Source: an uncultured Pseudomonadota bacterium
GTDB lineage: Bacteria > Pseudomonadota > Gammaproteobacteria > Methylococcales > Methylomonadaceae
Direction of reading: 5' to 3'
Assembly: GCA_903867225.1 (NCBI GenBank)
Contig: CAIPQN010000042.1
Coordinates: 102,992-166,991 of the forward strand
DNA length: 64,000 nucleotides
Positions 8,350-40,152 of the stretch are shown here, one piece after another. The position numbers were made by a program, and so were the translations under genes. How positions within the stretch are numbered: position 1 is the first letter of the stretch; every line of letters begins with the position of its first letter. A model generated the notes under the pieces. That model was not told the DNA's origin. It did not search any database and saw only the letters and a program-made list of their open reading frames with translations.

Positions 8350-10446
8350 ATGACAGATTTATCGCTTTACAGAAATATCGGTATTTTCGCCCACGTTGAC
8401 GCGGGCAAAACGACAACGACCGAACGTATTTTGAAATTAACAGGCAAAATTCACAAAATTGGCGAAGTACATGACGGCGCAGCGACGACCGATTTCATGG
8501 AACAAGAACAAGAACGCGGAATTACCATTCAATCAGCGGCGACAACGTGTTTCTGGAAAGATCACCGTTTCAACATTATCGACACACCAGGTCACGTTGA
8601 TTTCACGATTGAAGTATACCGTTCATTAAAAGTTTTAGACGGCGGTGTCGGCGTATTCTGTGGTTCAGGGGGCGTTGAACCGCAATCAGAAACTAACTGG
8701 CGTTATGCCAACGATTCAAAAGTTTCACGAATCATTTATGTGAATAAATTAGATCGTATTGGCGCAGATTTTTACCGCGTTGTGAAACAAGTTGAAGATG
8801 TTTTAGCGGCAAAACCTGTCATTATGACTTTGCCAATCGGCGAAGAAGACAAATTCTCAGGTGTGATTGATTTGTTGACCATGAAAGCCTGGAACTGGGA
8901 TGAATCAGGCGATCCGTTGAAATACACAATCGACGAAATTCCTGCTGATATGCAAGCTAAAGCAGAAGAATATCGCGTTAAATTGATTGAAGATGTTATC
9001 GATCAAGACGATGTAATTTATGAAAAATACTTAGAAGACGAAATTGCACCAAGCATTGAAGACCTTAAACGCTGCCTCCGTAAAGGCACCATCAAAATGG
9101 ATTTCTTCCCGACTTTCTGCGGTTCATCATTCAAAAACAAAGGTGTTCAATTAGTTTTAGACGGCGTTATCGATTATTTACCTTGCCCAACCGAAGTAAA
9201 TCCACAACCAGAAGTGGATTTAGACGGCAACGCAACAGGTAAATTTGCAATCGTAACCGCTGATGCGCCTTTGCGTTCATTAGCGTTCAAAATTATGGAT
9301 GACCGTTTTGGCGCGTTGACGTTCTTGCGTATTTACTCTGGTAAATTAGAAAAAGGCACAGCGGTTTTAAATACGTTCACGGGTAAAACCGAACGCATTG
9401 GTCGTATTGTTGAAATGCACGCTGACACGCGTATCGAATTAGAATCAGCGCAAGCGGGCGACATCGTTGCGGTTTTGGGTATGAAAAACGTGCAAACAGG
9501 TCACACATTGTGCGATCCAAAATTCCCAGCGACATTAGAACCAATGGTTTTCCCTGATCCAGTTATTTCGCTCGCTATTTCGCCAAAAGACAAAGCCGCT
9601 TCTGAAAAAATGGGCGTTGCATTAGGCAAAATGATTCAAGAAGATCCGTCTTTCCACGTTGAAACCGACGAAGACAGCGGCGAAACAATTTTGAAAGGCA
9701 TGGGTGAATTACACTTAGATATTAAAGTGGACATTTTGCGTCGTACACACGGCGTTGACGTAATCGTTGGTAAACCACAAGTTGCATATCGTGAAACGAT
9801 TACCCGAGAAGTGGAAGACGAATACACCCACAAAAAACAATCAGGTGGTTCTGGTCAATACGGCAAAATCAACTATATCATCACTCCAGGTGAACCAGGT
9901 TCAGGTTTCGTCTTTGAATCAACGGTTACAGGTGGTAACGTTCCACGCGAATACTGGCCTGCTGTTGAAAAAGGTTTTAAATCAATGTTGGACAAAGGCG
10001 TTTTGGCTGGCTTCCCTTGTTTAGATTTCAAAGTGAATTTAACTGACGGTGGATTCCATGCGGTGGATTCATCAGCAATTGCGTTTGAAATTGCTGCAAA
10101 AGCGGCGTTCCGCCAAACCATGCCAAAAGCGGGTCCACAATTGATTGAACCAATCATGGCAGTTGATACGTTCACGCCGTCTGATCATGTTGGTGACGTA
10201 ATCGGGGATTTAAACCGTCGTCGGGGTATGATTAAATCACAAGATGCGGGTCCAACAGGCGTTCGTATTAAATCAGAAGTGCCTTTGAGCGAAATGTTCG
10301 GTTACATCGGTGATTTGCGTACCATGACATCTGGTCGTGGTCAGTTCTCGATGGAATTTTCGCATTATTTACCTTGCCCTAAAAACGTTTCTGAAGAAGT
10401 CATCAAAGAAGTCACAGAACGCAATAAAGCAAAAGAGAAAAAATAG
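8350..10446 (+). CDS. fusA: Elongation factor G paralog (stand-alone, outside an rpsL-rpsG-fusA-tuf context)
   Basis: 698 aa. G1 [28 protein letters not shown], and EF-G domains IV/V (HAVDSS..., [10 protein letters not shown]). Confidence 0.95.
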
Positions 10447-10466
10447 TTTCTTGATGGCTCGAAAAG

Positions 10467-10499
10467 GCGCAAGTCGCAGAAATGCAGCTTGCGCTTTTT
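10467..10499 (+). terminator. Rho-independent terminator after EF-G gene
   Basis: GCGCAAGTCGCAgaaaTGCAGCTTGCGC stem followed by TTTTT, about 20 nt after the stop codon. Confidence 0.6.
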
Positions 10500-10507
10500 G
10501 ATTGTGC

Positions 10508-10544
10508 AAAAAGAAAAACCGCCTGATAATTGCTCATCAGACGG
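10508..10544 (-). terminator. Rho-independent terminator ending the long flg-che minus-strand gene run
   Basis: Minus strand reads CCGTCTGATGagcaattATCAGGCGG followed by TTTTTCTTTTT. Confidence 0.6.
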
Positions 10545-10653
10545 TCTTTCCCCACTTTCTTAACACAAAACAACACACTTTTTTACAAACAACTTTACTT
10601 CTTACAACAACCAAACAACACACTTTTTATAACATAAATAATAATTTTTTAAA

Positions 10654-11382
10654 TTAAACACCTGTTCCAACTTGTAACGAATCGAACCAATCCAAAAAGC
10701 GTTTAACATCATCGCCTTTGAACATTCGTCCGTGTTGAGGGGCTAAAATATCAATATCTAAATTTCTAACACGATCAATCCAGGCACGTTTAGCCTGATT
10801 CGACGGCATCATCCGTTGATGATAGGCTCGCATTTTCTCAACGTGAACATCAAAGCGTTCAACAAATACTGGCGCATTTGCAGGTTCAAAAGCAGAACCA
10901 ACACTACCACACATTAAAATTTTCGCTTGTGGATCATAAACATGAAAGTTACAAGGCGAATGCAAGTAGTGTGCAGGAATAATCTGTAATTCCACAGATT
11001 CTATTTTAATTGTTTCGCCATTGTCTGGAATCGGCACATATTCAATAGATTCACAGCCGAAATTGCGAATGTAGCCTTCCCAAAGAGCAGGGGCGTGTAA
11101 TTTCGCATTTGATAACGCTTGATCCCATAAGCCTAATGACGAAATTACGTCAGGGTCTTGGTGTGATGCAAACAAATCCGTAATTTGATCAACTGGCGCA
11201 TGATGTAGAACTGCTGCCATCATTGGTGCAAACAATTCCGTGCCACCAGGCTCAAGCAACAAACATTTGTTTGCTGTTCGCACAATGTACTGGTTGCTGT
11301 CGATAATGTTATCGGGTTTATTTTCGTCGCGCCCAAACATCACCCATTGATGCGCTCCTTCGTAAATCTTAGTCATTTTCAT
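10654..11382 (-). CDS. Metallo-beta-lactamase-fold di-metal protein, last gene of the che operon (candidate ODP-like O2/Fe sensor)
   Basis: 242 aa with AGGAG RBS. MBL-like motif positions: ..LFASHQDPDVISS.., ..AHYLHSPCNFHVYD.., ..ILAPQHGRMF... Motif 2 is HQDPDV rather than HxHxDH, so it is not a canonical hydrolase site. 18-bp gap to the upstream mini-MCP gene. Confidence 0.6.
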   Translation of the reverse strand: MKMTKIYEGAHQWVMFGRDENKPDNIIDSNQYIVRTANKCLLLEPGGTELFAPMMAAVLHHAPVDQITDLFASHQDPDVISSLGLWDQALSNAKLHAPALWEGYIRNFGCESIEYVPIPDNGETIKIESVELQIIPAHYLHSPCNFHVYDPQAKILMCGSVGSAFEPANAPVFVERFDVHVEKMRAYHQRMMPSNQAKRAWIDRVRNLDIDILAPQHGRMFKGDDVKRFLDWFDSLQVGTGV

Positions 11383-11400
11383 GAAAATGATGCTCCTTTT

Positions 11401-12009
11401 TTAACTATTACGATAAATCGATAATGCGATTCGACAACGCTGCACATTATCATGAATGGTATGCGCCGCTTTATCGACGCTTTCGGCAACGGCTTGTAAA
11501 CTTTGTAAATACTCACCCGCTTGAGATGCTTCAATACGCGAGTTTGCCGCAATAACACGCGCTGCTCGGGCGTGGTGCATAACAGCTTCCAATTGTCCTA
11601 ATAATTGCGTCACATCACGTTTAAACTGACGTTGGCAATCTTGCATCATCGTTTTTGCGTGCGTAATCGGCTCTTGCATAGAATTAGCGTAATGCGCTCC
11701 ATTCGCCAATTTTGCCACTTGCTCAAAACGATTGTAAGCGGCAGTACGACGATACTCATTAACGGTTAAACGGTATAAAAGTAACGCATAAACATTGATA
11801 TTCGTAACTAATTCAATGGTTTCTTTAGCCAGTTCGTTAATAAAATCGGTAATTGGTTGAAAGCCTTTTGCTTTGTCACCCGCCCGAAAGGCAATTGCTT
11901 TTGCATTGGCTGCTGCCAACGAAATTTCTTTTGCAACGACCATAACGGCACTCAACTCCGACGTAATCGAAGCAACTGCAATAAATTGTGATTTTGTTTG
12001 ACTGTTCAT
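11401..12009 (-). CDS. Minimal soluble MCP-like protein (helical hairpin with diverged signalling tip, no sensor or TM domain)
   Basis: 202 aa, no hydrophobic segment. ISLAAANAKAIAFRAGDKAKGFQPITDFINELAKET aligns by eye with the canonical tip [34 protein letters not shown] of the neighbouring 772-aa MCP. Confidence 0.7.
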   Translation of the reverse strand: MNSQTKSQFIAVASITSELSAVMVVAKEISLAAANAKAIAFRAGDKAKGFQPITDFINELAKETIELVTNINVYALLLYRLTVNEYRRTAAYNRFEQVAKLANGAHYANSMQEPITHAKTMMQDCQRQFKRDVTQLLGQLEAVMHHARAARVIAANSRIEASQAGEYLQSLQAVAESVDKAAHTIHDNVQRCRIALSIYRNS

Positions 12010-12027
12010 AATGTCTCTTTTCGCCTG

Positions 12028-13098
12028 TTAACGTAATCCAGTTTTAACCAGTGTCAAAATTTTAGCGGCAATCTCATCTAAAGGAAGAACGTAATCCGTA
12101 CAGCCTAATTTAAATGCTGCACCAGGCATTCCCCAAACAACACTAGATGCTTCATCTTGAATAATGGTTTTTGCACCAGCTTCTTTCATGGCTTGCATAC
12201 CAACTGCGCCATCTGCTCCCATTCCTGTAAGCAAAACACATACCGCATTTTCTTTCGCACATTTCGCAGCCGCATGAAATAACACATCAACAGCGGGTTT
12301 ATGGCGATTCACAGGCGCACTATCTTCTATTTGAATAATATATTGATTATTCATTCGTATCACGCTCATTTGAAAACCACCTGGTGCAAGATAGATATTA
12401 CCCCATTCAACGACTTGCCCATGTACTGGAATCGTTGCCTTCATGTGTGTTACTGCATCAATATGCTGCACAAAAGATTCACTAAACGCCGCTGGCAAAT
12501 GTTGAGTAATCAAAATAGGTGGGCAATTTGCAGGTAAACTTTTTACTACGACTTTGATTGCTTCTGTACCCCCAGTCGATGCTCCCAAAACAATGAGTTT
12601 AGTAAAATTCGTTGTATTTTGTGTTGAGAGGATTTTTTGCATTGCATTTATTACATTAACAACCTTAGGTTCTTCATGCTGTTTTTGCGTTTCTCCATTC
12701 GTATTTGCCGCGACACGAACTTTTGAAATAATTTCTTCTGAAAAATCTGCAAGTGTATATTCGGTATCTATTTTTGGTTTTAATACAAAATCCACCGCTC
12801 CTAAAGCCAATGCTTCTAAAGTTACTTCTGCGCCATGACTTGTAAGTGTTGAAATCATCACAACAGGCATCGGGCGCAAACGCATCAAATTTCGCAAAAA
12901 CGTAATGCCATTCATGTGTGGCATTTCAATATCGAGTGTCAATACGTCAGGATTTAACTCTTTAATCATATCTCTTGCGACCAAAGCATCTTCTGCCGCA
13001 CCAACAACTTCAATATCTGGAGCATTATTGAGTACGCTGGTTAATATTTTTCGGACTAATAAGGAATCATCGACAATTAAAACTCGTATTTTTTTCAT
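12028..13098 (-). CDS. cheB: Chemotaxis response regulator protein-glutamate methylesterase CheB
   Basis: N-terminal receiver (KIRVLIVDDS...LTLDIEMPHMNG) and C-terminal methylesterase (LIVLGASTGGTEAI, HLPAAFSESF, LLTGMGADG). Confidence 0.95.
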   Translation of the reverse strand: MKKIRVLIVDDSLLVRKILTSVLNNAPDIEVVGAAEDALVARDMIKELNPDVLTLDIEMPHMNGITFLRNLMRLRPMPVVMISTLTSHGAEVTLEALALGAVDFVLKPKIDTEYTLADFSEEIISKVRVAANTNGETQKQHEEPKVVNVINAMQKILSTQNTTNFTKLIVLGASTGGTEAIKVVVKSLPANCPPILITQHLPAAFSESFVQHIDAVTHMKATIPVHGQVVEWGNIYLAPGGFQMSVIRMNNQYIIQIEDSAPVNRHKPAVDVLFHAAAKCAKENAVCVLLTGMGADGAVGMQAMKEAGAKTIIQDEASSVVWGMPGAAFKLGCTDYVLPLDEIAAKILTLVKTGLR

Positions 13099-13136
13099 GC
13101 GTACTCTGTGAATCGGGTTTATTTATTTGTTACGAA

Positions 13137-13772
13137 TTAAAATAGTTCAACATCGCCTTCAACAGGCAAGTCTTTGATATTTCTTAAGTATTGGTGATCG
13201 CGCTGTGCAATAGTATCGTTATGCAAGTCTTGGATTTTTTTCATTCCAACTTTTCCTGTTTTTGGAAAATAAATGACTTTACGTGGATAAATATCACCCA
13301 AATCTTGCGATAACAATGTCAGTCCTTCTTGGTCAATATAATCCAAAATGAAATCTATATTGCTCTTGCCGACATCGCTTAACGTTGGAATAATTTTTCC
13401 ACCGCCAAACACCTTAATTTCCAAATTTTTACGTTTGCCACCATTAGTTAAAATGGTATTTATTAGGTGTTCCATCGCAAAATTACCATAACGGTTCGCT
13501 TGACCAATCATGGCATTGCTGCCTTGCTGCATTTTTAATTTTGTCGTTTCGGGTAACATAAAATGATTCATGCCACCAACGCCCGATTCTTTATCTCGCA
13601 CACACGCTGAAATACACGAACCCAATATCGTTGTAATCAGTTCATTTTCAGCTGTAACGTAGTATTCACCTGGTAGTATTTTTGCAGCAACAATACCGTG
13701 ATCTCTGTCTAAATAACGATTGACGTGGTCAAAACCGTGAATAGAGGGTTTATCAATTTCGCTAGCACTCAT
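13137..13772 (-). CDS. cheD: Chemoreceptor glutamine deamidase CheD
   Basis: 211 aa with CheD signature LGSCISACVRDKESGVGGMNHFMLP. Located between cheR and cheB, as in Che2-type clusters. Confidence 0.9.
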   Translation of the reverse strand: MSASEIDKPSIHGFDHVNRYLDRDHGIVAAKILPGEYYVTAENELITTILGSCISACVRDKESGVGGMNHFMLPETTKLKMQQGSNAMIGQANRYGNFAMEHLINTILTNGGKRKNLEIKVFGGGKIIPTLSDVGKSNIDFILDYIDQEGLTLLSQDLGDIYPRKVIYFPKTGKVGMKKIQDLHNDTIAQRDHQYLRNIKDLPVEGDVELF

Positions 13773-13774
13773 TT

Positions 13775-14611
13775 TTATGTATTTTTTCGATAGCTGGTAG
13801 TTGCCACCAACTCAAACTCGTTACAAATTTGATTTAATGACTCCGAATGTCCAATAAATAACCAGGACTTACTAGCCAACATTTTAGCATATCGTTTCGC
13901 CAAGGTAGTTTTTGTTTCACGGTCAAAATATATCAACACATTCCGACAAAAAATAACGTCAAAAGGTGTTTGCATGCCCCAATCTTGCATCAGATTTAAT
14001 TGTTTAAATTGAATAATTTCTTGTAATTCGGGTTTCACTTTAACGTAATCAGGCGACGATTTACTTCGCATAAACCAACGCTTCAAAACATCGGGTGATA
14101 AATCTGCAATTCGATCTTGTGTGTAAATGCCGTCTGAAGCCGTTTGCAAAACATTGGTATCTAAATCGGTGGCTAAAATTTGAGTATTCCAACCAGCAGG
14201 TAAATTTTCCAATAACGTCATCGCCACAGAATAAGGTTCTTCTCCTGTTGAGCAACCCGCCGACCAAACACGAATCTGTTTTGTACTTTTATTTCGTACC
14301 AACAATTCTGGAATAACCACGTCACGCAAATAATCAAAGTGATGCTGTTCACGAAAAAAGGAAGTTAAATTTGTCGTAATTGCGTTAATAAAATCAGTAA
14401 ATTCATCATCGTGATGATTATGCAAATACTGGCAGTATTCTTTGAAATTACTTAATCCTAATTTTCTAACACGTTTCGATAAACGAGAATAAAACATATC
14501 AAAACGTTCATCTGGCACTTGAATGCCAGAATGATCATTCGATAATTTTCTCAAGATATTGAAATCTTCAGCCGTAAATTTAAATTCGCGTTCTTTTTCT
14601 ACGATAGCCAT
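13775..14611 (-). CDS. cheR: Chemotaxis protein methyltransferase CheR
   Basis: 278 aa. TSFFREQHHFDYL, SAM-binding IRVWSAGCSTGEEPYSVAM, and FCRNVLIYFD. Confidence 0.95.
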   Translation of the reverse strand: MAIVEKEREFKFTAEDFNILRKLSNDHSGIQVPDERFDMFYSRLSKRVRKLGLSNFKEYCQYLHNHHDDEFTDFINAITTNLTSFFREQHHFDYLRDVVIPELLVRNKSTKQIRVWSAGCSTGEEPYSVAMTLLENLPAGWNTQILATDLDTNVLQTASDGIYTQDRIADLSPDVLKRWFMRSKSSPDYVKVKPELQEIIQFKQLNLMQDWGMQTPFDVIFCRNVLIYFDRETKTTLAKRYAKMLASKSWLFIGHSESLNQICNEFELVATTSYRKNT

Positions 14612-14649
14612 ATTTACAACGCATTTCCTTTGATTTTATCAATCAATTG

Positions 14650-15402
14650 CTAGACTTCGGTTATTTCAAGAACATCAAGTAAATTCAACAATTTTGCAGA
14701 TTCAATAAATCGTGTAGACGGATAAATGATGCCCACATTTTTATGTGATTGCTGCTGATATTTTTTCAATGAAACTAATAATTGCAACGTTGCAGTATCG
14801 ATTGTCGTGACATCTGAAGCATTGATTTCAATGGTATCGTGTGCCGCTAAAGCCCGTTTTATTGTGTCATAAAGTGCCACGATATTTTTAATCGTCGCTT
14901 CAGCATTTAATTCAATCAATGGTTCGACTATTTCTTCAGGTTTTTTTTCAGGAACTTCTTCGGGTTCTTTTTCAAGAACGTCTGTTTCTTCCAAGGCAAT
15001 TTCACTGATTTCTTCAACTATTTCATTGATAACTGTGTCATCTGTTTCTGAAGATTCCATCGAGATTTCAACATCTATATCAACATTTTCATCAGTGTCG
15101 ATAGCGATTTCAATGTCGCCGTCTTCATCAACGATTACGTCGATTTCAAATTCTTCCGTTGTATCTTCATCATCAGTCGCGTCATTACTTTCAGCTTCGA
15201 TAGCGATTTCTTCAGTTACAGCAACAACTTCATTTTCGGTTTCTTGTTCAACTTGTTCTTCTGGCTCATCAACCACGGGAGCGGCTTTTGCTTTTGTTTT
15301 CGCTTTAGTTACTTTTTTAGCGGGTGCAGGAGGTGTTTCGTCAAGCGTTTCGCCATCCATCCATGCCAATGGATCGTAACCAATTAAATTATTTGTTGTC
15401 AT
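14650..15402 (-). CDS. Highly acidic protein with C-terminal STAS domain (possible partner of the adjacent ParA-like ATPase)
   Basis: 250 aa. Short N-terminal peptide, then a Lys-rich patch (KKVTKAKTKAKA). About 130 aa of D/E-rich low complexity follows. The C-terminal ~90 aa are STAS-like (LNAEATIKNIVALYDTIKRAL...IEINASDVTTIDTATLQLLVSL...). 14-bp overlap with the parA-like stop. Confidence 0.7.
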   Translation of the reverse strand: MTTNNLIGYDPLAWMDGETLDETPPAPAKKVTKAKTKAKAAPVVDEPEEQVEQETENEVVAVTEEIAIEAESNDATDDEDTTEEFEIDVIVDEDGDIEIAIDTDENVDIDVEISMESSETDDTVINEIVEEISEIALEETDVLEKEPEEVPEKKPEEIVEPLIELNAEATIKNIVALYDTIKRALAAHDTIEINASDVTTIDTATLQLLVSLKKYQQQSHKNVGIIYPSTRFIESAKLLNLLDVLEITEV

Positions 15403-16162
15403 CTGTCATTACCCTATCTTCAAGAAAATCATTGGCAAGATTACGGAAATCTCGTGCAGAACGGCTTTTTGGACTGTATTCCAAAATGGTTTGTCCAAAA
15501 CTTGGACATTCCGCTAATAACGCTGTTTCACGAATGACTGTCGCCAATATCTGATTAGGAAAGTGGGACAGTAATATGTTTATAACCTGACCAGAAATAC
15601 GGCGCGTGGACATATAACGCGAAATCACGACCGAAAGTTTATATTGCCGTTTTAATGCACCTTCAAAACGCTTCACTGTCGCCATTAAATGCGACAAACC
15701 TTGTAACGCTAGAAAATCACTCGCCATTGGAACCAAAATTTCTTGTGTGGCAATTAACGCATTTGCCACCAATAATCCTGACGATGGCGGGCAATCAATA
15801 AATATGAAATCTTGATCTTCCAATTGACCACGCAACGCATCACGCAACATGACTCCGCGTGGTGAACCTGTATTGCTCATTTGCTCTACGTCTTTAAGTT
15901 TCGAGCCTGCGGGAATCAATTGTAAATTTTCGCGCACTGATACTGCTTGATCCTCAATGGTTTTTTCTTTGAGCAAAGCCAAATCAACGCCACTTAAATT
16001 GTGCGAAATAATGCCAAATGAAACGGCTAAATGTCCTTGCGGATCAAAATCAATGACCGTCACTTTTTTGCCTAATTCAGCGAGTGCATGGCACAAATTC
16101 GCTGTCGTCGTGGTCTTTCCGACCCCGCCTTTTTGGTTAATAATGGCGATTATTCTGGTCAT
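15389..16162 (-). CDS. ParA/MinD-family ATPase embedded in the chemosensory operon (ParC/PpfA-like)
   Basis: 257 aa with deviant Walker A IINQKGGVGKTTTTANL and Walker B-like FIFIDCPPS. 1-nt overlap (TAATG) with the upstream cheW stop. Confidence 0.9.
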   Translation of the reverse strand: MTRIIAIINQKGGVGKTTTTANLCHALAELGKKVTVIDFDPQGHLAVSFGIISHNLSGVDLALLKEKTIEDQAVSVRENLQLIPAGSKLKDVEQMSNTGSPRGVMLRDALRGQLEDQDFIFIDCPPSSGLLVANALIATQEILVPMASDFLALQGLSHLMATVKRFEGALKRQYKLSVVISRYMSTRRISGQVINILLSHFPNQILATVIRETALLAECPSFGQTILEYSPKSRSARDFRNLANDFLEDRVMTDDNK

Positions 16163-16683
16163 TACAGAAAGTCTTCCGTGTCAGGCGAAATAGAATCGGC
16201 AAGCTCATCCATTCCATCAAGTTCATCTGGATTAAGTAGTTTGTCTACGTCCAAAAGCATAATCATATTTTTTTTATAAACGTGCATTCCACGCATATAA
16301 CGGGTGTCTAATTGCGAACCAAAATTAGGTGCTTTTTTAATTTCGCTGAGTTTTATATCAAGAACATCTGAAACCGCATCTGCCACAATTCCCATCACAA
16401 ACGTTTCAGTGCGATGATGTTTTACGCACAACACAATTACGACAGTTTTATGGGTATATTCACAATGTTCTAGCGAAAAACGTTCGCGTAAATCCACAAT
16501 CGGAATGACAGAACCGCGTAAATTTAATACGCCTTTGATAAAAGAAGGTGCGTTTGGAATTACACGCACAGCTTCCCAACCTCTGATTTCTTGTACCTTT
16601 AATATTTCCACACCATAGACTTCACTGGCGAGTTCAAAAGTTAAAAATTGCTCAATTTGTTTATTATGTACATCAGTAGTCAT
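16162..16683 (-). CDS. cheW: Chemotaxis coupling protein CheW (copy 2)
   Basis: CheW domain (FLTFELASEVYGVEILKVQEIRGWE...VLNLRGSVIPIVDLRERF), paralogous to the 172-aa CheW at 19077. The track start 16752 is a GTG overlapping the MCP gene; ATG at 16683 with an AGGAAA RBS is preferred. Confidence 0.9.
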   Translation of the reverse strand: MTTDVHNKQIEQFLTFELASEVYGVEILKVQEIRGWEAVRVIPNAPSFIKGVLNLRGSVIPIVDLRERFSLEHCEYTHKTVVIVLCVKHHRTETFVMGIVADAVSDVLDIKLSEIKKAPNFGSQLDTRYMRGMHVYKKNMIMLLDVDKLLNPDELDGMDELADSISPDTEDFL

Positions 16684-16723
16684 GATTGTTATTTCCTGCG
16701 GGTTATATGTAGCATTATCAGTT

Positions 16724-19042
16724 TTAAAACTCTTCCCAATCATCACTGCCACTGCTCATCGTCGAAACGGGTAGGGCAGGTGATTTCATTTTTGCGACAG
16801 GTTGTTTCATCGGTGTTGAAGTTTGGCTTCGTGTCGATGAATTTTTGTCACTGACTTTAAAGAAATTGAGCAACTGAGACATTTTGGCAGACTGCTCACT
16901 CATTGCCATACTGTTCGCTGCCGCTTCTTCCGCTAAAGCAGAATTTTGTTGGGTAATATCATCCATTTGTGCCACGGCTTGATTTACCTGACTAATTCCA
17001 GTCGATTGTTTATCGCTGGATTCGGTAATTTGTCCGACAATGTCACCAACTCTGATAATACTATCGACAATTTCCATCAATGCTGCACCTGTTTCATTAA
17101 CAAATGCCGTGCCAGAGCGCACTTTTTGTACGCTATTTTGAATCAATTCACTACTTTGTGCTGCTGCAGTTGCGCTGCGTTGCGCTAAGTTTCTGACTTC
17201 CGTAGCAACTACAGAAAAACCACGTCCTTGTTCGCCTGCTCTTGCTGCTTCTACGGAAGCATTCAACGCCAACAAATTAGTTTGGAAAGCGATTTCGTCA
17301 ATCACACCAATAATTTCAGCGATACGATTACTACTTTCGTTAATTTCTAACATCGCGCCAATGGCAGATTTCACCACCTCACCGCCTTTTTCTGCCAGCT
17401 GTGTCGCTGACTCAACTACTTTCGTGGCTTGCTGTGTATTTTCGGCATTGCTTTTCACTGTGTGAGATAAATCATTCATGCTCGCAGCAGTTTGTTCCAA
17501 GCTACTGGCTTGTTGTTCAACACGTTGTGACAAATTATTGTTGCCGCTTGCCATTTCTTGTGACGAGTTATTGACGAATTCAGCCGTTTCGCGAATTTGT
17601 AAAATAAAATGACTGATTTTAGAAATTGCATCGTTAATATGATCTTTACATTCTGCGTAAATACCTTGGTAATCCGATTGAATGCTATTAGTTAAATCAC
17701 CGTCTGCCATTTTTTCTATAACTGTATTGATGTCAACGAAGACATTTTCAATTATATCGGTTAATTCGTTAATGTTAATAGACAGCGATTTCTCAAAACC
17801 TTCTTTATCGTCAACACGAATTCGCGCACTTAAATTTCCAACTTTAATTGAATTTACTAAATTTACAATTTCTTGTTCAATTTTTGCTTCTAAAGTTCTA
17901 TCTTGCCATTCCGCGACGTAACCAATGCGCTCGCCGTTACTAGCAATAACAGGTTTAGCAATGACTTGCATTGAACGCCCCGCCAATACTAAATGTGAAG
18001 TTATAGAATCGGTCAGTCCTTTTAGTAAATCCCGCTGATATGCTGGATTTTTATGAAATATATCAATGGTTGAGCCAAGTAAGTTTGCCGCTTTAAAAGC
18101 AGGCAGTTCTTTACGAATATCATTTTCTGCATTGGTAAATAATTGTTGTGCTGCTTTATTCACAAAAATAATTTCTAAATTCGCATCTGCAATTAATACG
18201 CTAGATTGCACATTTTCTAATCCACTAATCACGCGCAGAGCATCAGAAGATGATTGACGTAAATCACCCAAATCGCTGCCTAATCTAATGCCTGTACCAT
18301 AAATGGCGCGTAATAATTCACCAAATTTATCATTACGTTTTAAATCAGGTGGTTTTGCGAATCTGTCGGTGCTTAATCGGTGTAATTCATTGATGGATAG
18401 TTCTACTAATTCGCAGGTATTGTGCGAGATACTGAACACCATCGCACCGCCTAAAACGGTTAATCCACCAACAATTGAGAGTAAACCATAATCCGCTGTA
18501 TTCAAAAACTCGGACATTAAAAAAACATTTGGAGCAACAAGAAAGGTTGATGCAAATGCTAGTTTTGTGCCAAGCGAAATTTCTTTAATTTTCTTTAAAA
18601 ATGCTGCGAAACCTGTTGCGTGTAACACAGCTTGATTCGCTGCAATTTTGCGATACAACGCTTCGGTTTCAATAATATCGCTTCGTAAAGGTGCGTGACG
18701 TACAGAAATATAACCAATCGCTACGTTATTTTCCAACAACGGCATGACATTCGCGTTCACCCAATAATAATCACCTGATTTTGACCGATTTTTTACTACA
18801 CCGTGCCACGGATTACCTTTTTTGATGGTATTCCACATATCTTCAAATGCCGCTTGAGGCATATCGGGATGGCGAACAACATTGTGTGATGCTCCAATAA
18901 GTTCATGGTGTGAATATCCGCTGATTTCTACAAAGGCATCATTCACAAACGTAATCACACCTTTTAAATCAGTACGAGTGACTAAAATCGTACCTGTTTT
19001 CATCAAACGTTCATTGTTTGTGACTGGGATATTCATTTTCAT
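16724..19042 (-). CDS. Aer-like methyl-accepting chemotaxis protein: PAS(Aer-type) - membrane hairpin - PAS - HAMP-like - MCP signalling domain - C-terminal DWEEF
   Basis: 772 aa. The N-terminal PAS carries the Aer hallmark [42 protein letters not shown]. Two hydrophobic stretches at about aa 160-215, then a second PAS ([21 protein letters not shown]). Canonical tip [34 protein letters not shown]. The extreme C-terminus is SGSDDWEEF. Confidence 0.9.
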
Positions 19043-19076
19043 TACGGCTTATCTCGTTAAAAATTGGTGATTAAAA

Positions 19077-19595
19077 TTAACTTTCTATTAATTCCATTGT
19101 GTCTAACGTCAATAATTTATCTACGTCAAGCAGCATTACCATGCGTTCATTAACCGAAACAAGACCATTAATAAATTCGTTACTTACTTTGGTACCAAAA
19201 TCAGGTGCGCCTTGAATTTCAGATTTATCCACGCTAATCACGTCAGAAACCGAATCAACAACGACTCCCATAATTCGCGTGTGACTGCCGCTGCCTGTTT
19301 GCAAAACCACGACAACTGTAAGTGGCGTATATTCGACTTTGCTCAGAGCAAAACGTTCGCGTAAATCAATAATTGGCACAATCGCGCCGCGCAAATTCAC
19401 CACGCCTTTTTCATAAAGCGGCACATTTGGAACTCGTGACACAGGTTCCCAACTGCGAATTTCTTGTACTCGTAAAATATCAACGCCGTATTCTTCTTTG
19501 CCTAATACAAAACTTAAATACTGAATAGTAATTGGCATTTCTGAATTAGCTTGCGCGACTTCTTTTGCAATCGGTTTTTCGTTTTCTTGTGACAT
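19077..19595 (-). CDS. cheW: Chemotaxis coupling protein CheW (copy 1)
   Basis: 172 aa with CheW domain (YLSFVLGKEEYGVDILRVQEIRSWE..VVNLRGAIVPIIDLRERF). Confidence 0.9.
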   Translation of the reverse strand: MSQENEKPIAKEVAQANSEMPITIQYLSFVLGKEEYGVDILRVQEIRSWEPVSRVPNVPLYEKGVVNLRGAIVPIIDLRERFALSKVEYTPLTVVVVLQTGSGSHTRIMGVVVDSVSDVISVDKSEIQGAPDFGTKVSNEFINGLVSVNERMVMLLDVDKLLTLDTMELIES

Positions 19596-19626
19596 AACAG
19601 TTTTCTGTATAAATGAGTGAGAAAAA

Positions 19627-21702
19627 TTAGCGCACGGACAAGCGAACTAAACCAGGCACGTCGAGAATTAACGCCACTGAACCGTCGCCCAAAATGGTTG
19701 CACCTGACACGCCTTCAACACGTCGATAATTGGCTTCCAACGATTTAATAACCACTTGTTGTTGACCAAGCAATTCATCAACCAAAAAGCCACATAATGC
19801 GCCTTGTCCTTCCACAACAACGATTACGCCTTCATTTGATTTTGTGGCGTTGCCCGATTTTACGTTGAAAATTTCGCGCATTCGGATAATCGGTAAATAC
19901 TCGTTACGCAATTTAAAGGTTTCACCTTTACCTGCAACTTTATTGAGCATTTTTTCTGTGATGTTAATGGATTCGATAATTGAAACGAGCGGGACAATAT
20001 AAGTTTCATCGCCAACTGCTACGGATTGACCGTCCAAAATTGCTAATGTTAACGGCAAATGAATCGCAATAGTTGAGCCTTTGCCAAGTTCAGAAATAAT
20101 GTCGATATTGCCGCCCAATGATTGGATATTTCGACGTACTACGTCCATACCAACGCCGCGTCCAGAAATATCAGTCAATTTTTCGGCGGTTGAGAATCCT
20201 GGCATGAAAATCAATTCCAGAATTTGTTTATCTGTCATTATGGTGGATTCTTCGACCAAGCCTTTTTCAATTGCTTTTGCGAGTAATTTGGCTTTATCCA
20301 TGCCGCGTCCGTCATCGACAATTTCGATTACGATGTGACCGCCGCGATGATAGGCTTTTAATTCGATTGTTCCCATTTCAGGTTTGCCAGCGGCAACCCG
20401 ATCCGCAGGCATTTCGATGCCGTGATCTAAACTATTACGAATTAAATGCACTAATGGATCGTTGATTAACTCAACTACCGCTTTATCGACTTCGGTGTTT
20501 TCACCCACCAATTTCAGCGTAATTTTTTTATGTAATTGGGTACTGATGTCGTGAACCAAACGCGGGAAACGACTAAATACGAAGCTAATTGGCAACATAC
20601 GAATGTTCATTACACTTTGTTGCAAATCGCGAGTGTGGCGTTCTAATTGTGCCAAACCACGTTTAAGCTGCCCAACTTTATCCATTGTGAAATTTTCACC
20701 AATCAAACCTAACATGGATTGTGTAATTACAACTTCGCCCACCATGTTAATCAAAGTATCAATTTTATCGGTATCTACTCGAATCGAACTAGAAGCCTTT
20801 GGTGCATTTTTTGATGGATCCGATTCTGTTGGTGCAGCTTTTTTAGGTGCTACAACAGGTGCAGTTTCAGCCACGACAGCGGGAGCTGCTTCAACGACAG
20901 GAGCAGGTGAGGGCGCGGGTTTTGGTTTTTTTACTTTTTTAGGTTTTGCTAAAGGAGCAAGTTCCAACGCACAATCTTCTTCAACCCAACTGAAGATTTC
21001 GCGAACCGCTGCTTCTGTTGCATCACTAACTAATGTTAATTCCCATGAAATGTTGCATTCTTCGGGATCTAATTCAGCAAATGGCGGTACATCTTGGATA
21101 TTGACGTTTGATGTTAATTTACCTAGCACGCTTAATTCTCGGAATAAGCGAACAGGATCATTACCTGTTTTGAGTAGGCTTAAATAAGGGCAGAATGAAA
21201 TTTTCCAGCCTTGTTCCTCGTCAATCTCCTCCTCTTCTTCGGGTTCTTCTACTGGAACAACAAATGGTGCGGCATGAACGACTGGTGCAGCGGCATGTTC
21301 ACCGCCACCTGTTTTCCCGTTTAACTCCATTTCTAGCGCAGCTTGATGTTGCGCCGCGCTTTCCATGTTGACATCTTCTTCATTCTGAATGGATGTTAAC
21401 ATTTCGCGTAAGCAATCAACCGAACCTAAAAGTACGTCCACCGCAGGTTTTGTAACTTGTCTACGCCCATCACGCATTTCATCAAGTAGCGTTTCCATGA
21501 TGTGGGTATATTCAGCAACGACGGTAAAGCCGAACGTACCACTACCCCCCTTAATGGAGTGTGCTGCCCTAAAAATAGTATTGATGACCTCGGAATCAAT
21601 GTCGCCAATATCGAGCGACAGCAATCCAGACTCCATCGCTTCTAAGCCTTCAAAACACTCTTCAAAAAAGACTTGATGAAATTGTGACATATCGATAGAC
21701 AT
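19627..21702 (-). CDS. cheA: Chemotaxis histidine kinase CheA (P1-P5)
   Basis: 691 aa. P1 Hpt (RAAHSIKGGSGTFGF), acidic linker, Pro/Ala/Lys-rich linker, P3/P4 (HLIRNSLDHGIE, DDGRGMD, GRGVGMDVV) and a P5 CheW-like domain. Confidence 0.95.
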   Translation of the reverse strand: MSIDMSQFHQVFFEECFEGLEAMESGLLSLDIGDIDSEVINTIFRAAHSIKGGSGTFGFTVVAEYTHIMETLLDEMRDGRRQVTKPAVDVLLGSVDCLREMLTSIQNEEDVNMESAAQHQAALEMELNGKTGGGEHAAAPVVHAAPFVVPVEEPEEEEEIDEEQGWKISFCPYLSLLKTGNDPVRLFRELSVLGKLTSNVNIQDVPPFAELDPEECNISWELTLVSDATEAAVREIFSWVEEDCALELAPLAKPKKVKKPKPAPSPAPVVEAAPAVVAETAPVVAPKKAAPTESDPSKNAPKASSSIRVDTDKIDTLINMVGEVVITQSMLGLIGENFTMDKVGQLKRGLAQLERHTRDLQQSVMNIRMLPISFVFSRFPRLVHDISTQLHKKITLKLVGENTEVDKAVVELINDPLVHLIRNSLDHGIEMPADRVAAGKPEMGTIELKAYHRGGHIVIEIVDDGRGMDKAKLLAKAIEKGLVEESTIMTDKQILELIFMPGFSTAEKLTDISGRGVGMDVVRRNIQSLGGNIDIISELGKGSTIAIHLPLTLAILDGQSVAVGDETYIVPLVSIIESINITEKMLNKVAGKGETFKLRNEYLPIIRMREIFNVKSGNATKSNEGVIVVVEGQGALCGFLVDELLGQQQVVIKSLEANYRRVEGVSGATILGDGSVALILDVPGLVRLSVR

Positions 21703-21778
21703 AATTTTACCTGTGTGCGCCTGAGTTTATTTATATGAGGTTGGAATCCAACCATTTCTGAAAATTATACAAAGATAG

Positions 21779-21794
21779 AGCAAATGCTGTGCCT
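21779..21794 (-). promoter_or_regulatory. Candidate sigma-54 promoter in front of cheA: AGGCACagcatTTGCT
   Basis: Minus strand reads tttttAGGCACAGCATTTGCTct. It matches TGGCAC-N5-TTGCW at GGCAC and TTGCT with exact spacing. Lies in the 187-bp hpt-cheA gap, about 75 nt upstream of the cheA ATG. Confidence 0.55.
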
Positions 21795-21857
21795 AAAAAT
21801 CAACTCAATATAAATTAAAAGTTGCAAAGGCGTTTTCTCTAGCATTTTTAAACTGTT

Positions 21858-21875
21858 GCGCCGATTTCTCGGCGC
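21858..21875 (-). terminator. GC-rich hairpin with GAAA loop 15 nt after the Hpt gene stop (attenuator or processing/stability element; no U-tract)
   Basis: GCGCCGA-gaaa-TCGGCGC forms a perfect 7-bp stem in an otherwise AT-rich spacer. It is followed by aacaguuuaaaaa, so it is not a classical intrinsic terminator. Confidence 0.4.
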
Positions 21876-21889
21876 GGGTGAATTTATAA

Positions 21890-22276
21890 CTAAGCGATTG
21901 ATGCTTTCATTTTTGTGCAATGTGCCATTGCAGCATCATCATTAACGACTTCTTTGTTTTGAAGTGTCTTAATCATGGCGCGAAGAAAATCAACGGATTC
22001 CAACATCATTTTGATATTGTCAGGATTTGTCAATTTCGTTTTATCACGCATTTCAGCTAAAAGATGCTCCATCTCTTTCGCATATTCGGCAACAGTGTGG
22101 AATTCCAACATCGCACAACCACCTTTAATGGTGTGTGCGCCACGATAAATCGTCATCATTTTTTCAAAATCAAACGCATCTAAATCAATGCTTTCAAGTT
22201 CTGACTTCATAATGTCTAAATTTTCTAAGCATTCTTCAAATAAAACATCATGAAACTGGGTCATATCAACAGACAT
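21890..22276 (-). CDS. Stand-alone Hpt (CheA-P1-like) phosphotransfer protein
   Basis: 128 aa. MSVDMTQFHDVLFEECLENLDIM...RGAHTIKGGCAMLEF is clearly paralogous to the CheA N-terminus MSIDMSQFHQVFFEECFEGLEAM...RAAHSIKGGSGTFGF. Confidence 0.85.
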   Translation of the reverse strand: MSVDMTQFHDVLFEECLENLDIMKSELESIDLDAFDFEKMMTIYRGAHTIKGGCAMLEFHTVAEYAKEMEHLLAEMRDKTKLTNPDNIKMMLESVDFLRAMIKTLQNKEVVNDDAAMAHCTKMKASIA

Positions 22277-22330
22277 CTTCTTTTCCTTTTGGGTGTTTAA
22301 TAAACAAAAATATAAGTTGCGCTAAATTGA

Positions 22331-22705
22331 TTAACCCAGCACTTTGAGTAATGTTTTCAAAAGCTGATCTGGATTAAATGGCTTAACCATCCACCCTGTT
22401 GCACCTGCTTCTTTGCCTTCCATTTTCTTTTCCATGCCTGATTCTGTAGTCAACATCAGCATTGGAACGTGTTTGTACTGCGGTAACTTTCTGAGATCTC
22501 GAATTAACTCAATCCCATCTTTATTTGGCATATTGACATCGGTTACGACGCAATCAAAAGTGCGAACTTTGGCTTTTTCTAAAGCATCAACACCATCTTC
22601 GGCTTCTTCTACATCATATCCAGCAGTTTTTAAGGTAAACGCCACCATTTTTCTCATTGAAGCTGAATCATCAACTGCAAGAATACTCGCCATCATTTTC
22701 TCCAT
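22331..22705 (-). CDS. cheY: Chemotaxis response regulator CheY
   Basis: Single receiver domain (ILAVDDSASMRKMV...VVTDVNMPNKDGIELI...MLTTE...GATGWMVKPF). The track start 22714 is a TTG. ATG at 22705 is used; ATGs at 22696/22693 are also possible. Confidence 0.9.
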   Translation of the reverse strand: MEKMMASILAVDDSASMRKMVAFTLKTAGYDVEEAEDGVDALEKAKVRTFDCVVTDVNMPNKDGIELIRDLRKLPQYKHVPMLMLTTESGMEKKMEGKEAGATGWMVKPFNPDQLLKTLLKVLG

Positions 22706-22849
22706 TGTTATCAAAGCAAAATACCAGGTGATATTACCGCATCTAGCACTACCTTGTTAAGCATAACCCCGTTTTTTTTACTTGATTCAACGAGAGATTG
22801 ACGTTGATGCCGTTTTACCTAAATCCTATGTCGATTTTTTGACTGCCTT

Positions 22850-35941: not shown

Positions 35942-37657
35942 ATGTACAATCGTGTTATGTTCCGAAAATTAAAATCTGTTGAGTTTATGTTTAAAAAATA
36001 CTTTGTTCTTAGTTTGTTGGTAATTGTGACTGCGTTAATTATTGTAACTACCCAATGGTTTCCTATCATTAAAAAGCATGCGCGTGAAATTCCACCCACA
36101 ACAGTTTTTAGTAACGCTGATAACGCAAATATCGAAAAACCGTGTACGGATGAGCGTATTGAATGGCGTGATGCACAAGAAATTGAAGGCGTAAAAATTT
36201 CTGCATCACCTGCATGTGAGCCTGATAATCCTTACACAATTGCGACTGCTGTCAAAGGAACGAATAACGTGTCGATGATGACGCTAATGCAAAGTAATCT
36301 TGCACAAGATGCTATTACGATGGGCGAAGATTTGGACAAAGACGGCGATCCTGACGAAATCTACATCAAATTAGAAGTTGTTGAATTAAATGGTTTTAGC
36401 CCAGATGGCGATTATTTAATGAATACTTATAATATCGCACCAGGTTTGCAGCCTTCTTTGTGGGTATTTGCACCAAAAATGCAGGGCATGGCGGTGAAAA
36501 ATTTTAATTCGCAGGTGGCCCATCCGTTATTACGTGCGCCTTCACCCGTTATTCGTGTTGAACAAGGCGACAAAGTTTTTATCACGCTAGAAAACACGCA
36601 TTATTTGCCACACACGATTCATTTACATGGTGTTGATCATCCGTTTTTGACTGCGGCAGGTCATGATAATGATGGCATGGAAGAACACGCCGTTTTTCCA
36701 GGTAAGCAGCACACTTACGAAATTCAACCACGTCATGCAGGAACGATGCTCTATCATTGCCACGTTCAAACGGCTCAACATTTCATGATGGGTTTGAATG
36801 GAATGTTTATTGTCGAAGAAAATGCGCCAAATAATTGGGTACAAACATTTAATATCGGGGCAGGACAGGTGCGTCATTCTGCTGTTCATGTTCAGAAAAA
36901 TTACGATCAAGAATACGATTTGCACTATCAATCGATAGATAAAGAACTCGCCAAAATTCCTCAAGAAGCTAATGATCCACGCTTAATTAGTCAAAAAATG
37001 AGTCGTGATTACAATATGACGACATCGAATGAAAATTATTTTTTACTTAATGGACATTCGTTTCCTTACACCTTGCGTGATGCAATGATCGTTGTGAATG
37101 AAAATGAACGTGTAAAAATACACGCAGCTAATTTACAACGTTCGCCAATTGCAGTGCATTTTCATGGGCATAAAGCCACAATCACTGCTTACGACGGCGT
37201 TGATGCACCACAAGGTTTGCAATTAACTCGCGATGTTTTTGATATTTCACCTGCACAACGTTTAGATTTATCACTTAATACAAAAAATGACGGTTTAAAT
37301 AGTTACGGCGCGGGGCTTTGGATGTTTCATGACCACACACCCACGGGGACAACTACTGACGGTATGGAACCAGGTGGAAATATCACATTACTTGCATACA
37401 AATCATTTTTAGACGCGCAAGGAATGCCAAAAATGCACGATGAACTTTTTAATGATGTCTTTAATAAAGAGTACTACGCAAAACAACGACCGCTTTGGGC
37501 AAATGGCGAATGGGCAAGTTTCTTTGGTGATGCAGGAAAAGTTACACCAAATTATAGTGAGTTGATTGCATTTTGTGCGGTGATTGGTTTGTTAATTGGC
37601 GCATTTATTTTGACGCTGCATATTTATTTACAAAATAGAATTCATGAAAAAAAATAA
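35942..37657 (+). CDS. Membrane-anchored two-domain multicopper oxidase (T1 site in domain 1, i.e. type-C-like 2dMCO)
   Basis: 571 aa with hydrophobic segments at both ends (FVLSLLVIVTALIIV; LIAFCAVIGLLIGAFILTL). Copper motifs: HTIHLHG, YHCHVQTAQHFMMG (His-Cys-His plus His/Met), VHFHGH, and MFHDH (no Cys in domain 2). No twin-arginine motif was seen. Confidence 0.8.
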   Translation: MYNRVMFRKLKSVEFMFKKYFVLSLLVIVTALIIVTTQWFPIIKKHAREIPPTTVFSNADNANIEKPCTDERIEWRDAQEIEGVKISASPACEPDNPYTIATAVKGTNNVSMMTLMQSNLAQDAITMGEDLDKDGDPDEIYIKLEVVELNGFSPDGDYLMNTYNIAPGLQPSLWVFAPKMQGMAVKNFNSQVAHPLLRAPSPVIRVEQGDKVFITLENTHYLPHTIHLHGVDHPFLTAAGHDNDGMEEHAVFPGKQHTYEIQPRHAGTMLYHCHVQTAQHFMMGLNGMFIVEENAPNNWVQTFNIGAGQVRHSAVHVQKNYDQEYDLHYQSIDKELAKIPQEANDPRLISQKMSRDYNMTTSNENYFLLNGHSFPYTLRDAMIVVNENERVKIHAANLQRSPIAVHFHGHKATITAYDGVDAPQGLQLTRDVFDISPAQRLDLSLNTKNDGLNSYGAGLWMFHDHTPTGTTTDGMEPGGNITLLAYKSFLDAQGMPKMHDELFNDVFNKEYYAKQRPLWANGEWASFFGDAGKVTPNYSELIAFCAVIGLLIGAFILTLHIYLQNRIHEKK

Positions 37658-38288
37658 ATTTTTAATTGTGCTTTTGTTGACGATTTCACAATCAAGTTTT
37701 GCGACCATGCAAATGGACGAAAAAGGCATGGTGATGAATGCGAATCCCGATAATTTGCCAAAAGATTGCCCTCAAATTTCTGAAACAGTGGATTTGACGA
37801 TTCACGCTGGGCATAAATATGCGACGAAATTTAACGACAAAATGTTTGCTTTTGATCAACAACAATGGGATGTGAAACCGTGCGCTAAAATAAATATTAC
37901 GTTTATCAATGATGATCAAATTCGTCACCAATTTATGATTCATGGTTTACCTGGTTATTTGTATCCTGATGGAATGTTACATTTGGAACTTTATGGTGAA
38001 GGAGAATTGCACGCGAGTTTAATTATGCCTAGCAAAAAAAAGACATATTTGGTGCATTGCGAGTTGGCACAGCATGCGGAAAAAGGAATGAAAGCGCAGT
38101 TAAAAGTAGGGGGGGGGGATGGTGATTTGCCAAGCGTTCCTGGGATTACTTCGCCAATAAAAGAAAATCCTTATTTGTTTGATTGGACAGTATTTAAACT
38201 AGGAGGAATAGTTATTTTATTTGCTATTTCAGTAATTACAATTGGAGGACGCGGACTAATAATGCGTTATTTTGATCGGCATAAATGA
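37644..38288 (+). CDS. Membrane-tethered type-1 (blue) copper protein, cupredoxin fold
   Basis: 214 aa. Signal peptide (..LLLTISQSSFA), candidate T1 ligands IRHQFMIHG ... HCELAQHAEKGM (Cys-x4-His-x4-Met), a Gly-rich linker, and a C-terminal TM (LGGIVILFAISVITIGG). 14-bp overlap with the MCO gene. Confidence 0.75.
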   Translation: MKKNKFLIVLLLTISQSSFATMQMDEKGMVMNANPDNLPKDCPQISETVDLTIHAGHKYATKFNDKMFAFDQQQWDVKPCAKINITFINDDQIRHQFMIHGLPGYLYPDGMLHLELYGEGELHASLIMPSKKKTYLVHCELAQHAEKGMKAQLKVGGGDGDLPSVPGITSPIKENPYLFDWTVFKLGGIVILFAISVITIGGRGLIMRYFDRHK

Positions 38289-38359
38289 ATGAGTTTTTTA
38301 TTTGATTTTGTGTATAAAAAGATTGTGTGTCATTTAGAAAATTATTTAGAGCATTGTTG

Positions 38360-39260: not shown

Positions 39261-39280
39261 TCTAAGCTCTCGGTTGTAAT

Positions 39281-40123: not shown

Positions 40124-40152
40124 TTGTAAGAATTTTTCCACTAGGGGGATAT

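Follow-up and report, generated by a model that had tools for sequence, protein, structure and literature searches.

The subject of this work is a pair of genes within a chemosensory operon of an uncultured bacterium of the family Methylomonadaceae (contig CAIPQN010000042.1). They lie in a stretch of 64,000 nucleotides (nt), called the window below. One gene encodes a ParA-like ATPase of the Soj type, 257 amino acids (aa) in length, and the adjoining gene encodes a protein of 250 aa that ends in a STAS domain. Both stand between cheW and cheR, in an operon that runs cheY, hpt, cheA, cheW, a gene for an Aer2-like methyl-accepting chemotaxis protein (MCP) with a PAS domain, a second cheW, parA, STAS, cheR, cheD, cheB, and finally genes for a 202-aa MCP-signal protein and a di-iron protein of the ODP family (Table 1). 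The genes of interest are tightly packed. The stop codon of cheW and the start codon of parA have a single base in common (TAATG at 16162), and the end of parA overlaps the start of the STAS gene by 14 nt (15389-15402). The initial annotation of this DNA had the open reading frames (ORFs), their lengths, both overlaps and the cheW and cheR flanks right in every coordinate. The backbone of the cluster, with its cheD and Aer2-like receptor, agrees with that of the F7 stage-1 chemosensory clusters, and its CheA shares 47% identity with that of a Vibrio cluster of the same class.

The pairing is not peculiar to one genome. When one genome per GTDB species was scanned with a pattern, 80 loci came up (L001-L080), all within Methylococcales, and these were annotated against the window's proteins. 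The order cheW-parA-STAS-cheR is kept in 66 of the 80, spread over Methylobacter, Methylomonas, Methylovulum, Methylomarinum and lineages from lakes, with identities amongst the ParA proteins of 60-99%. The stop of parA overlaps the start of the STAS gene in all but one of these 66 loci, by 14 nt in 52 of them, 1 nt in nine, 11 nt in three and 17 nt in one. Because the gene order recurs in 66 genomes, each representing a species, the arrangement is far beyond chance. It had been suggested that STAS may be a dedicated partner of ParA, and it does behave like one: the STAS gene is always the next one downstream, 65 of 66 overlap, and, as described below, a motif in the STAS protein tracks ParA. 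The STAS protein has 496 homologues at E<=1e-3, and a profile run against 1.84 billion cluster representatives gave, at E<=1e-10, 219 that stand for clusters at 50% identity.

Then there are the pairs outside Methylococcales, in other lineages known from metagenomes. Gene contexts of distant STAS relatives, together with searches that started from ParA, brought them out within canonical F7 stage-1 clusters (L082/83, L084/85, L086, L088, L090, L091 and L095). The order of genes in the canonical clusters is cheY-cheA-cheW-aer2-cheW-parA-STAS-cheR-cheD-cheB-mcp, followed by a gene for a 101-aa STAS protein of the DSS type and a gene encoding a REC-PP2C protein. In these distant clusters ParA is 49-61% identical to that of the window and CheA is 57-59% identical, and the GC content is 44-54%. 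That L082-L091 fall outside Methylococcales is judged from the lower identity, the GC content and the NCBI names of the closest ParAs; the nearest named ParAs outside Methylococcales belong to Candidatus Thiodiazotropha. By these comparisons the ParA-STAS module is widespread in F7-like clusters, and the expectation that a survey of gene neighborhoods would reveal a conserved STAS neighbor is borne out in Methylococcales and elsewhere. In L090 a gene for a 188-aa protein with no Pfam match (10209-10775) is inserted between the ParA-coupled STAS gene and cheR.

Outside the STAS fold, the sole invariant element of the STAS protein is a 10-mer close to its N-terminus, [LM]IG[YFH]DPLAW[ML]. Residues L6 to L12 and W14 do not vary in 53 aligned homologues, all 66 ParA-linked loci from GTDB genomes have the core [LM]IG[YF]DPLAW, and the motif also begins most of the best-scoring new cluster representatives. 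The distant ParA-coupled proteins have variants of it, MIGHNPLAWL in L082 and a degenerate NHDPLQEM in L090. A search of the window and of 81 loci found the DPLAW motif in no further protein. AlphaFold2 makes the motif a short helix of low-to-moderate confidence, which is what might be expected of a motif that folds on binding.

This is not the element that had been foreseen. The initial annotation put forward a basic N-terminal peptide as a possible activator of the ATPase, and the peptide that is conserved, LIGYDPLAWM in the window, contains no basic residue at all. The lysines belong to a patch further on, which among Methylococcales is confined to the clade of the window (loci L001-L015, L026, L027 and L059). 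Of the other ParA-linked Methylococcales homologues checked (Methylobacter, Methylomonas, Methylovulum and the L016-L019 clade), none has the patch, and ParA is kept in every case; in Methylobacter the extension before the STAS domain can be without any lysine or arginine. In view of this restriction the Lys patch is rejected as a general activator.

If the 10-mer serves ParA, it should go where ParA goes, and there are three independent lineages without ParA in which to look. The first consists of eight Methylococcales loci (seven assemblies), from Methyloglobulus, Methylomicrobium, Crenothrix and some Methylobacter, with the order cheY-cheA-cheW-STAS-cheD-cheB. Their STAS proteins are short and the motif is gone, with a decayed vestige, NLIDYDHLAG, in L060. 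A neighbor-joining tree of CheA, rooted on Vibrio and made without bootstrap, groups these loci in a single clade that lies within the ParA-positive clusters, which points to a single loss of ParA. The second lineage is represented by L087 and L093, which are without ParA and have kept the second cheW and cheR; L087 also has Aer2, and the cluster of L093 is broken by transposase genes. The STAS proteins of these two (L087, 9001-9588; L093, 7001-7588) have at the N-terminus a different conserved motif, FxQKFxQAE[SN]W, and after it an acidic linker, and DPLAW is absent. As the gene contents read, this is the cleanest case of co-variation, with only ParA missing. The third is Vibrio, where the F7 stage-1 cluster of chromosome 2 has upstream of cheY a gene for a 97-aa homologue that is a STAS domain and nothing more, 35% identical to the STAS domain of the window's protein, with no ParA and no DPLAW peptide. 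A tblastn search of plasmids with the STAS domain gave matches to Vibrio chromosome 2 only. By these alignments, then, the motif co-varies with ParA: in all three lineages it is either absent or a decayed vestige. Aer2 is not its partner, since six loci that have no Aer2 gene retain the rest of the operon, ParA and motif included. The STAS domain itself is evidently an older accessory of F7 clusters, one that persists where there is no ParA.

There is little in the ParA-like protein that is out of the ordinary. It matches Pfam AAA_31 (3e-44) and CbiA (2e-21), and the closest solved structures are 8RAY, a ParA family protein (2e-43), and Soj of Thermus thermophilus, 1WCV (1e-38), both over residues 3-247. 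Residues 9-18 are a deviant Walker A sequence, NQKGGVGKTT, in which K11 and K16 are invariant in an alignment of 65 orthologues. The switch, or Walker A', sequence is IDFDPQG (D38 and D40) and Walker B is FIFIDCPP (D123), and these aspartates, along with the two lysines, are invariant in a 14-sequence ParA alignment. From the motifs and the similarity over its full length, the protein can be placed in the ParA/MinD superfamily of deviant Walker A ATPases. It is of the small Soj type, without an N-terminal extension. Its C-terminus, ...DFLEDRVMTDDNK, has no hydrophobic segment and no amphipathic helix of the kind that targets MinD to membranes, so that by sequence it lacks the membrane-targeting helix of the MinD subfamily.

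The STAS protein is odder. It has 67 aspartate and glutamate (D/E) residues, a net charge of -50 and an isoelectric point of about 4.05. It can be divided into four parts: the N-terminal peptide MTTNNLIGYDPLAWMDGE, the patch of Pro and Lys, a long acidic linker, and the C-terminal STAS_2 domain. The layout in the initial annotation is thus upheld as to the Lys patch, the D/E-rich linker and, through AlphaFold2 and Foldseek, the STAS fold. Its description of the linker as disordered stands only in part, because within the acidic region there is a predicted beta-hairpin, conserved in the window's clade with the consensus VEIDVxIDxDGDIEIxIE, and a helix predicted at low confidence (aa 122-135). 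Nor is extreme acidity essential. Linkers across the homologues range from about 45 to about 180 aa (median 94 aa) and from 21 to 50% D/E (median 34%), and the ParA-coupled protein of L082, from outside Methylococcales (1205-1750), has in place of an acidic linker a strongly basic one, made of Lys-rich repeats and resembling histone H1.

The fold of the C-terminal domain was confirmed by structure search alone: a PDB sequence search with a profile of the whole STAS protein had no match. The AlphaFold2 model, built from a 53-sequence alignment, has a predicted local distance difference test score (pLDDT) above 90 over aa 160-245, and Foldseek matches the region to SpoIIAA, RsbV, MlaB and TM1081 with target-normalized template modeling (TM) scores of 0.57-0.72. 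On the strength of the model, the STAS fold is confirmed. At the N-terminus of its helix 3, where canonical antagonists carry the phospho-serine of the DSS motif, the window's protein has Thr203 (codon 14794-14796). A check for a conserved phosphorylatable residue had been suggested, and within Methylococcales there is a candidate, as Thr203 is invariant in 75 of 75 homologues. Elsewhere the residue is not conserved, the position being occupied by Ala in L082, L091 and the Vibrio homologue and by Gly in L090. No kinase or phosphatase gene is found in the window's operon. Phospho-regulation, put forward at first as the way in which STAS might be controlled, is by this comparison unlikely to be a general feature of ParA-coupled STAS proteins.

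How might one make sense of a parA gene coupled so closely to a STAS gene? No account of ParA paired with STAS in a chemosensory cluster came up in full-text searching of the literature and targeted reading, in agreement with the initial annotation, which was aware of none. ParA-based placement of chemoreceptor arrays is known from only two systems, ParC/ParP and PpfA/TlpT. The che-associated ParA in these systems works with a CheW-like adaptor (ParP) or with the N-terminus of a receptor (TlpT). The sequence of the window's pair suggests a third, as yet undescribed way of placing or inheriting the arrays.

I propose that parA and the STAS gene encode a two-component module that positions or partitions an F7-like array, in which the N-terminal peptide docks on ParA and the STAS domain docks on the array. 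From the sequence comparisons I regard this as somewhat probable. Known partners of ParA proteins, such as ParB, MinE, McdB and PomX, are encoded by the next gene downstream, and in them a peptide at the N-terminus is joined through a linker to a domain for the cargo. The STAS protein bears the signature of such a partner, in that its gene is always directly downstream of parA and translationally coupled to it, its layout is motif, linker and cargo domain, and its motif is lost when ParA is lost.

The model supposes that the ParA-like protein, to judge by its conserved motifs, is a catalytically competent ATPase of the Soj type that dimerizes on ATP. The STAS protein would be the cargo adaptor, docking on ParA through [LM]IG[YFH]DPLAW[ML], and the flexible, usually acidic linker would space that peptide from the C-terminal domain. 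The STAS domain would bind the array, most likely at CheA/CheW or at the tips of the receptors, by analogy with CheS and in view of its persistence in F7 clusters that have no ParA. Cycles of binding to ParA and release from it would then place the arrays, or share them among daughter cells, much as in PpfA/TlpT and ParC/ParP. That the STAS domain persists without ParA makes binding to the array or to the kinase its likely ParA-independent role, for which there is a parallel in CheS, a STAS-only protein of Sinorhizobium meliloti reported to bind CheA (PMC12654446).

The model can be extended. The 10-mer might stand for a new class of ParA-docking motif, one that is not basic, and the STAS domain might be a structural component of F7 arrays. 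Together with this subfamily of ParA they would make up a third widespread mechanism of array positioning or inheritance, ancestral to F7 stage 1 and lost towards Vibrio, Pseudomonas and E. coli. The charge of the linker, acidic in most cases and Lys-rich in some, may tune the relation of cargo to nucleoid. All of this taken together is rather doubtful, and I offer it tentatively.

Several observations speak against the proposed module. ParA activators typically make use of a basic residue in the N-terminal peptide, and the conserved peptide here has none; it may tether ParA without stimulating it, or it may work in a different way. Nor is it certain that the window's ParA binds the nucleoid. 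Soj of Bacillus subtilis binds DNA through two arginines, R189 and R218. In the alignment with Soj, the position of R218 is occupied by an arginine (R234), and the position of R189 by a glutamate, with an arginine one position earlier, and it is the glutamate that leaves nucleoid binding in doubt. The Methylococcales clade without ParA lost Aer2, the second cheW and cheR as well, so that this loss by itself cannot assign the motif to ParA. Finally, in two genomes of Ca. Thiodiazotropha an orthologous ParA is kept beside a 101-aa DSS-type STAS protein and ychF, and the surrounding 9 kb contains no che genes. The two ParAs share 76% identity, and with the che-linked ParA of L090 they share 68-72%. 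Comparison of their surroundings with L090 suggests two deletions that took out the che genes. In these two species, as their gene order has it, the subfamily can persist without an adjacent array operon.

An alternative view is that the STAS domain itself regulates the ATPase, as MlaB does MlaF, to make a nucleotide-dependent switch that acts on signaling or on the partner-switching output and is not a positioning motor, with the peptide as an accessory contact. MlaB offers a precedent for a STAS protein that binds an ATPase. It shares the STAS_2 fold, and its chains have the highest identity (27-28%, in structural alignment) amongst the top Foldseek matches. The STAS and REC-PP2C output module that ends F7 stage-1 clusters is also in keeping with this view, as is the ParA orthologue that Thiodiazotropha keeps next to a STAS protein, with no che genes nearby, in two genomes. 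That STAS protein, however, belongs to a different subfamily, the DSS type; a BLASTP comparison of the window's STAS domain with a DSS-type 3' STAS (the L086 homologue) shows no similarity, and the pairing also fits two deletions around genes already present, as the comparison with L090 indicates. MlaF, moreover, is the ABC ATPase of a lipid transporter, whereas the genes here have che neighbors and no mla genes, and the match to NCBIfam mlaB_1 reaches 25.5 bits, far below the cut-off of 90. Also against the idea of a regulatory STAS domain is that the domain persists unchanged in clusters without ParA, where the N-terminal peptide alone has been lost. I consider it an unlikely explanation.

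It could be supposed instead that the STAS protein has nothing to do with ParA: that it is an accessory of the kinase or the array, like CheS, derived from the 5' STAS of F7 stage 1 by relocation, with a peptide that binds some other che component (the second CheW or CheR, for example) lost at the same time as ParA. Both Vibrio and several Methylococcales do have a homologous STAS protein and no ParA, the Methylococcales clade did lose the second cheW, Aer2 and cheR along with ParA, and CheS provides a precedent (PMC12654446). It is L087 and L093 that tell against it, having retained the second cheW and cheR (and, in L087, Aer2), with ParA alone gone and the motif absent. Add to this the conserved 14-nt overlap of parA with the STAS gene and the lack of special features in the second CheW, and the probability of an independent ParA is low, slightly lower than that of an MlaB-like regulator. 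Lower still is the probability that the STAS protein is a conventional antagonist of an anti-sigma factor, the phospho-regulated output of a partner switch. Ortega et al. (2020, PMC7184735) do name anti-sigma factor antagonists in F7 stage-1 clusters, and Thr203, invariant in Methylococcales, sits at the start of helix 3 in the position of the phospho-site. Against this, other ParA-coupled homologues have Ala or Gly at the site and the Vibrio homologue has Ala, and no gene for an anti-sigma kinase or a PP2C phosphatase is found in the window's che operon or the scanned flanking ORFs. The canonical clusters have besides a separate, unrelated STAS protein well suited to the job, the DSS type next to REC-PP2C, which matches the antagonist TM1442.

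Returning to the proposed positioning module, a near parallel is PpfA/TlpT, encoded by cheOp3 of Rhodobacter sphaeroides. There the N-terminus of TlpT stimulates the ATPase, and PpfA binds DNA non-specifically in an ATP-dependent manner. Compared by description, the two systems have in common a small Soj-like ParA within a che operon that is not the primary one, an adjacent partner thought to act through its N-terminus, and a proposed part in the inheritance of arrays. PpfA/TlpT serves cytoplasmic chemoreceptor clusters, and the window's operon likewise encodes a soluble, receptor-like protein of 202 aa. They differ in the partner, which is a chemoreceptor in the case of TlpT and here a STAS protein whose conserved peptide is not basic.

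The clusters that encode ParC/ParP have a CheA with a LID domain, and ParP has a region that interacts with ParC. ParP is CheW-like (AIF), and its clusters, of class F6, are anchored by HubP; here the adaptor would be a STAS protein, in an F7-like cluster with cheD and Aer2, and the neighboring CheW has no extension like that of ParP. What is shared with ParC/ParP of Vibrio and Pseudomonas F6 systems is a ParA-like ATPase that is encoded in a che cluster and joined to the array by an adaptor of its own (PMC7534058). The 5' STAS described in F7 stage-1 clusters (Ortega et al. 2020, PMC7184735) is a homologous STAS_2 protein, set in the same backbone of cheY-cheA-cheW-aer2-cheW-cheR-cheD-cheB. 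The protein of Vibrio differs in consisting of STAS alone, in its place upstream of cheY and in having neither a ParA neighbor nor DPLAW, and the published description does not mention a parA gene (PMC7184735). CheS of S. meliloti and Agrobacterium, likened by description, is also a STAS protein of a che operon, with the core complex, and not a sigma factor, as its target (PMC12654446). It is a STAS domain of about 100 aa and nothing else, whereas the window's protein has 250 aa in several parts.

If the module does position arrays, the STAS protein would be a new type of adaptor for the task, and the STAS genes of F7 clusters, which have had no explanation, would be given a role. This matters, as it is still not clear what the "ancestral" F7 systems do or how they work in the cell (Ortega et al. 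2020, PMC7184735). The rules by which ParA proteins recognize their partners may have to be broadened, because the conserved peptide is without the typical basic residue. A sharply defined motif of 10 residues in a conserved module also gives experiment a direct handle. And the carriers include Methylobacter and Methylomonas, methane oxidizers of environmental importance.

Table 1. Positions of the genes and protein segments discussed (window coordinates, except where a locus is named)
Feature	Position	Strand	Remarks
F7-like che operon	10654..22714	-	13 genes, directly downstream of flgK and flgL
cheY	22714-22331	-	first gene of the F7-like operon
Stand-alone Hpt protein, 128 aa	21890-22276	-	between cheY and cheA; resembles P1 domain of CheA
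Aer2-like PAS/HAMP receptor, 772 aa	16724-19042	-	C-terminal pentapeptide DWEEF, of the type that tethers CheR/CheB
Second cheW	16162-16752	-	Pfam CheW 1e-33
parA (ParA/Soj-like)	15389-16162	-	
STAS gene	14650-15402	-	
N-terminal short linear motif NLIGYDPLAWM, aa 5-15	15358..15390	-	proposed ParA-docking peptide
Lys-rich patch AKKVTKAKTKAKA, aa 28-40	15283..15321	-	specific to the window's clade
Acidic linker, aa 43-160	14923..15276	-	43% D/E, net charge -48
Predicted beta-hairpin EIDVIVDEDGDIEIAID, aa 86-102	15097-15147	-	AlphaFold2 pLDDT about 70-79; within acidic region
STAS domain of STAS_2 type, aa 161-250	14653..14922	-	Pfam STAS_2 3e-9 over aa 163-241
cheR	13775-14611	-	flanks STAS gene
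202-aa MCP-signal-only protein and ODP-family di-iron metallo-beta-lactamase protein	10654-12009	-	end of operon; Pfam ODP 8e-64
pmoCAB (particulate methane monooxygenase)	35942-41397	+	each subunit matches Pfam with E below 1e-120; two multicopper-oxidase-like ORFs precede it
Ca. Thiodiazotropha ParA, DSS-type STAS, ychF	L089 9001-11485; L094 9001-11381		gap of 116-184 nt between ParA and STAS

The rest of the operon can be described more briefly. The second cheW, as listed, begins with a GTG codon, and its true start is probably about 23 codons downstream, at a conserved MTTD near 16683, in which case the apparent overlap with the receptor gene would vanish. The protein has some 172 aa, and no conserved N-terminal extension or basic peptide was found among its orthologues, for which reason it is not like ParP. 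Two proteins of the operon are of the receptor type. The Aer2-like one has a single hydrophobic hairpin (aa 185-206) in the membrane and no periplasmic domain. The other, paired with ODP, has a weak match to Pfam MCPsignal and one borderline hydrophobic stretch, and looks like a receptor without a membrane segment. The pair resembles the oxygen/iron sensor of Treponema and Thermotoga, made of ODP and a soluble receptor. In most loci its two genes are the most conserved of the operon, with 79-100% identity wherever the pair occurs.

The gene for a stand-alone Hpt protein is confined to the window's clade, and none is present in the clusters of Methylobacter and Methylomonas. In many clusters of the Methylobacter type (L020-L056) there is one more ORF, of about 134-140 aa, some 1.8 kb downstream of STAS and between cheD and a full-length cheB. 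Its product resembles the CheB receiver domain, and the window has no such ORF.

The host is a gammaproteobacterial methanotroph, as follows from the presence of pmoCAB in the window and from the STAS gene, which is 99% identical to that of L001, a metagenome-assembled genome of a lake Methylococcales. The far end of the window (43361-64000, plus strand) is given over to giant proteins of a secreted type: one of 966 aa with FG-GAP/RTX, one of 1110 aa with RTX, one of 3115 aa with Big_13, and an ORF that is cut off by the end of the window after more than 735 aa. Among them, on the minus strand, are genes for a CHASE2-cyclase and a DUF928 protein.

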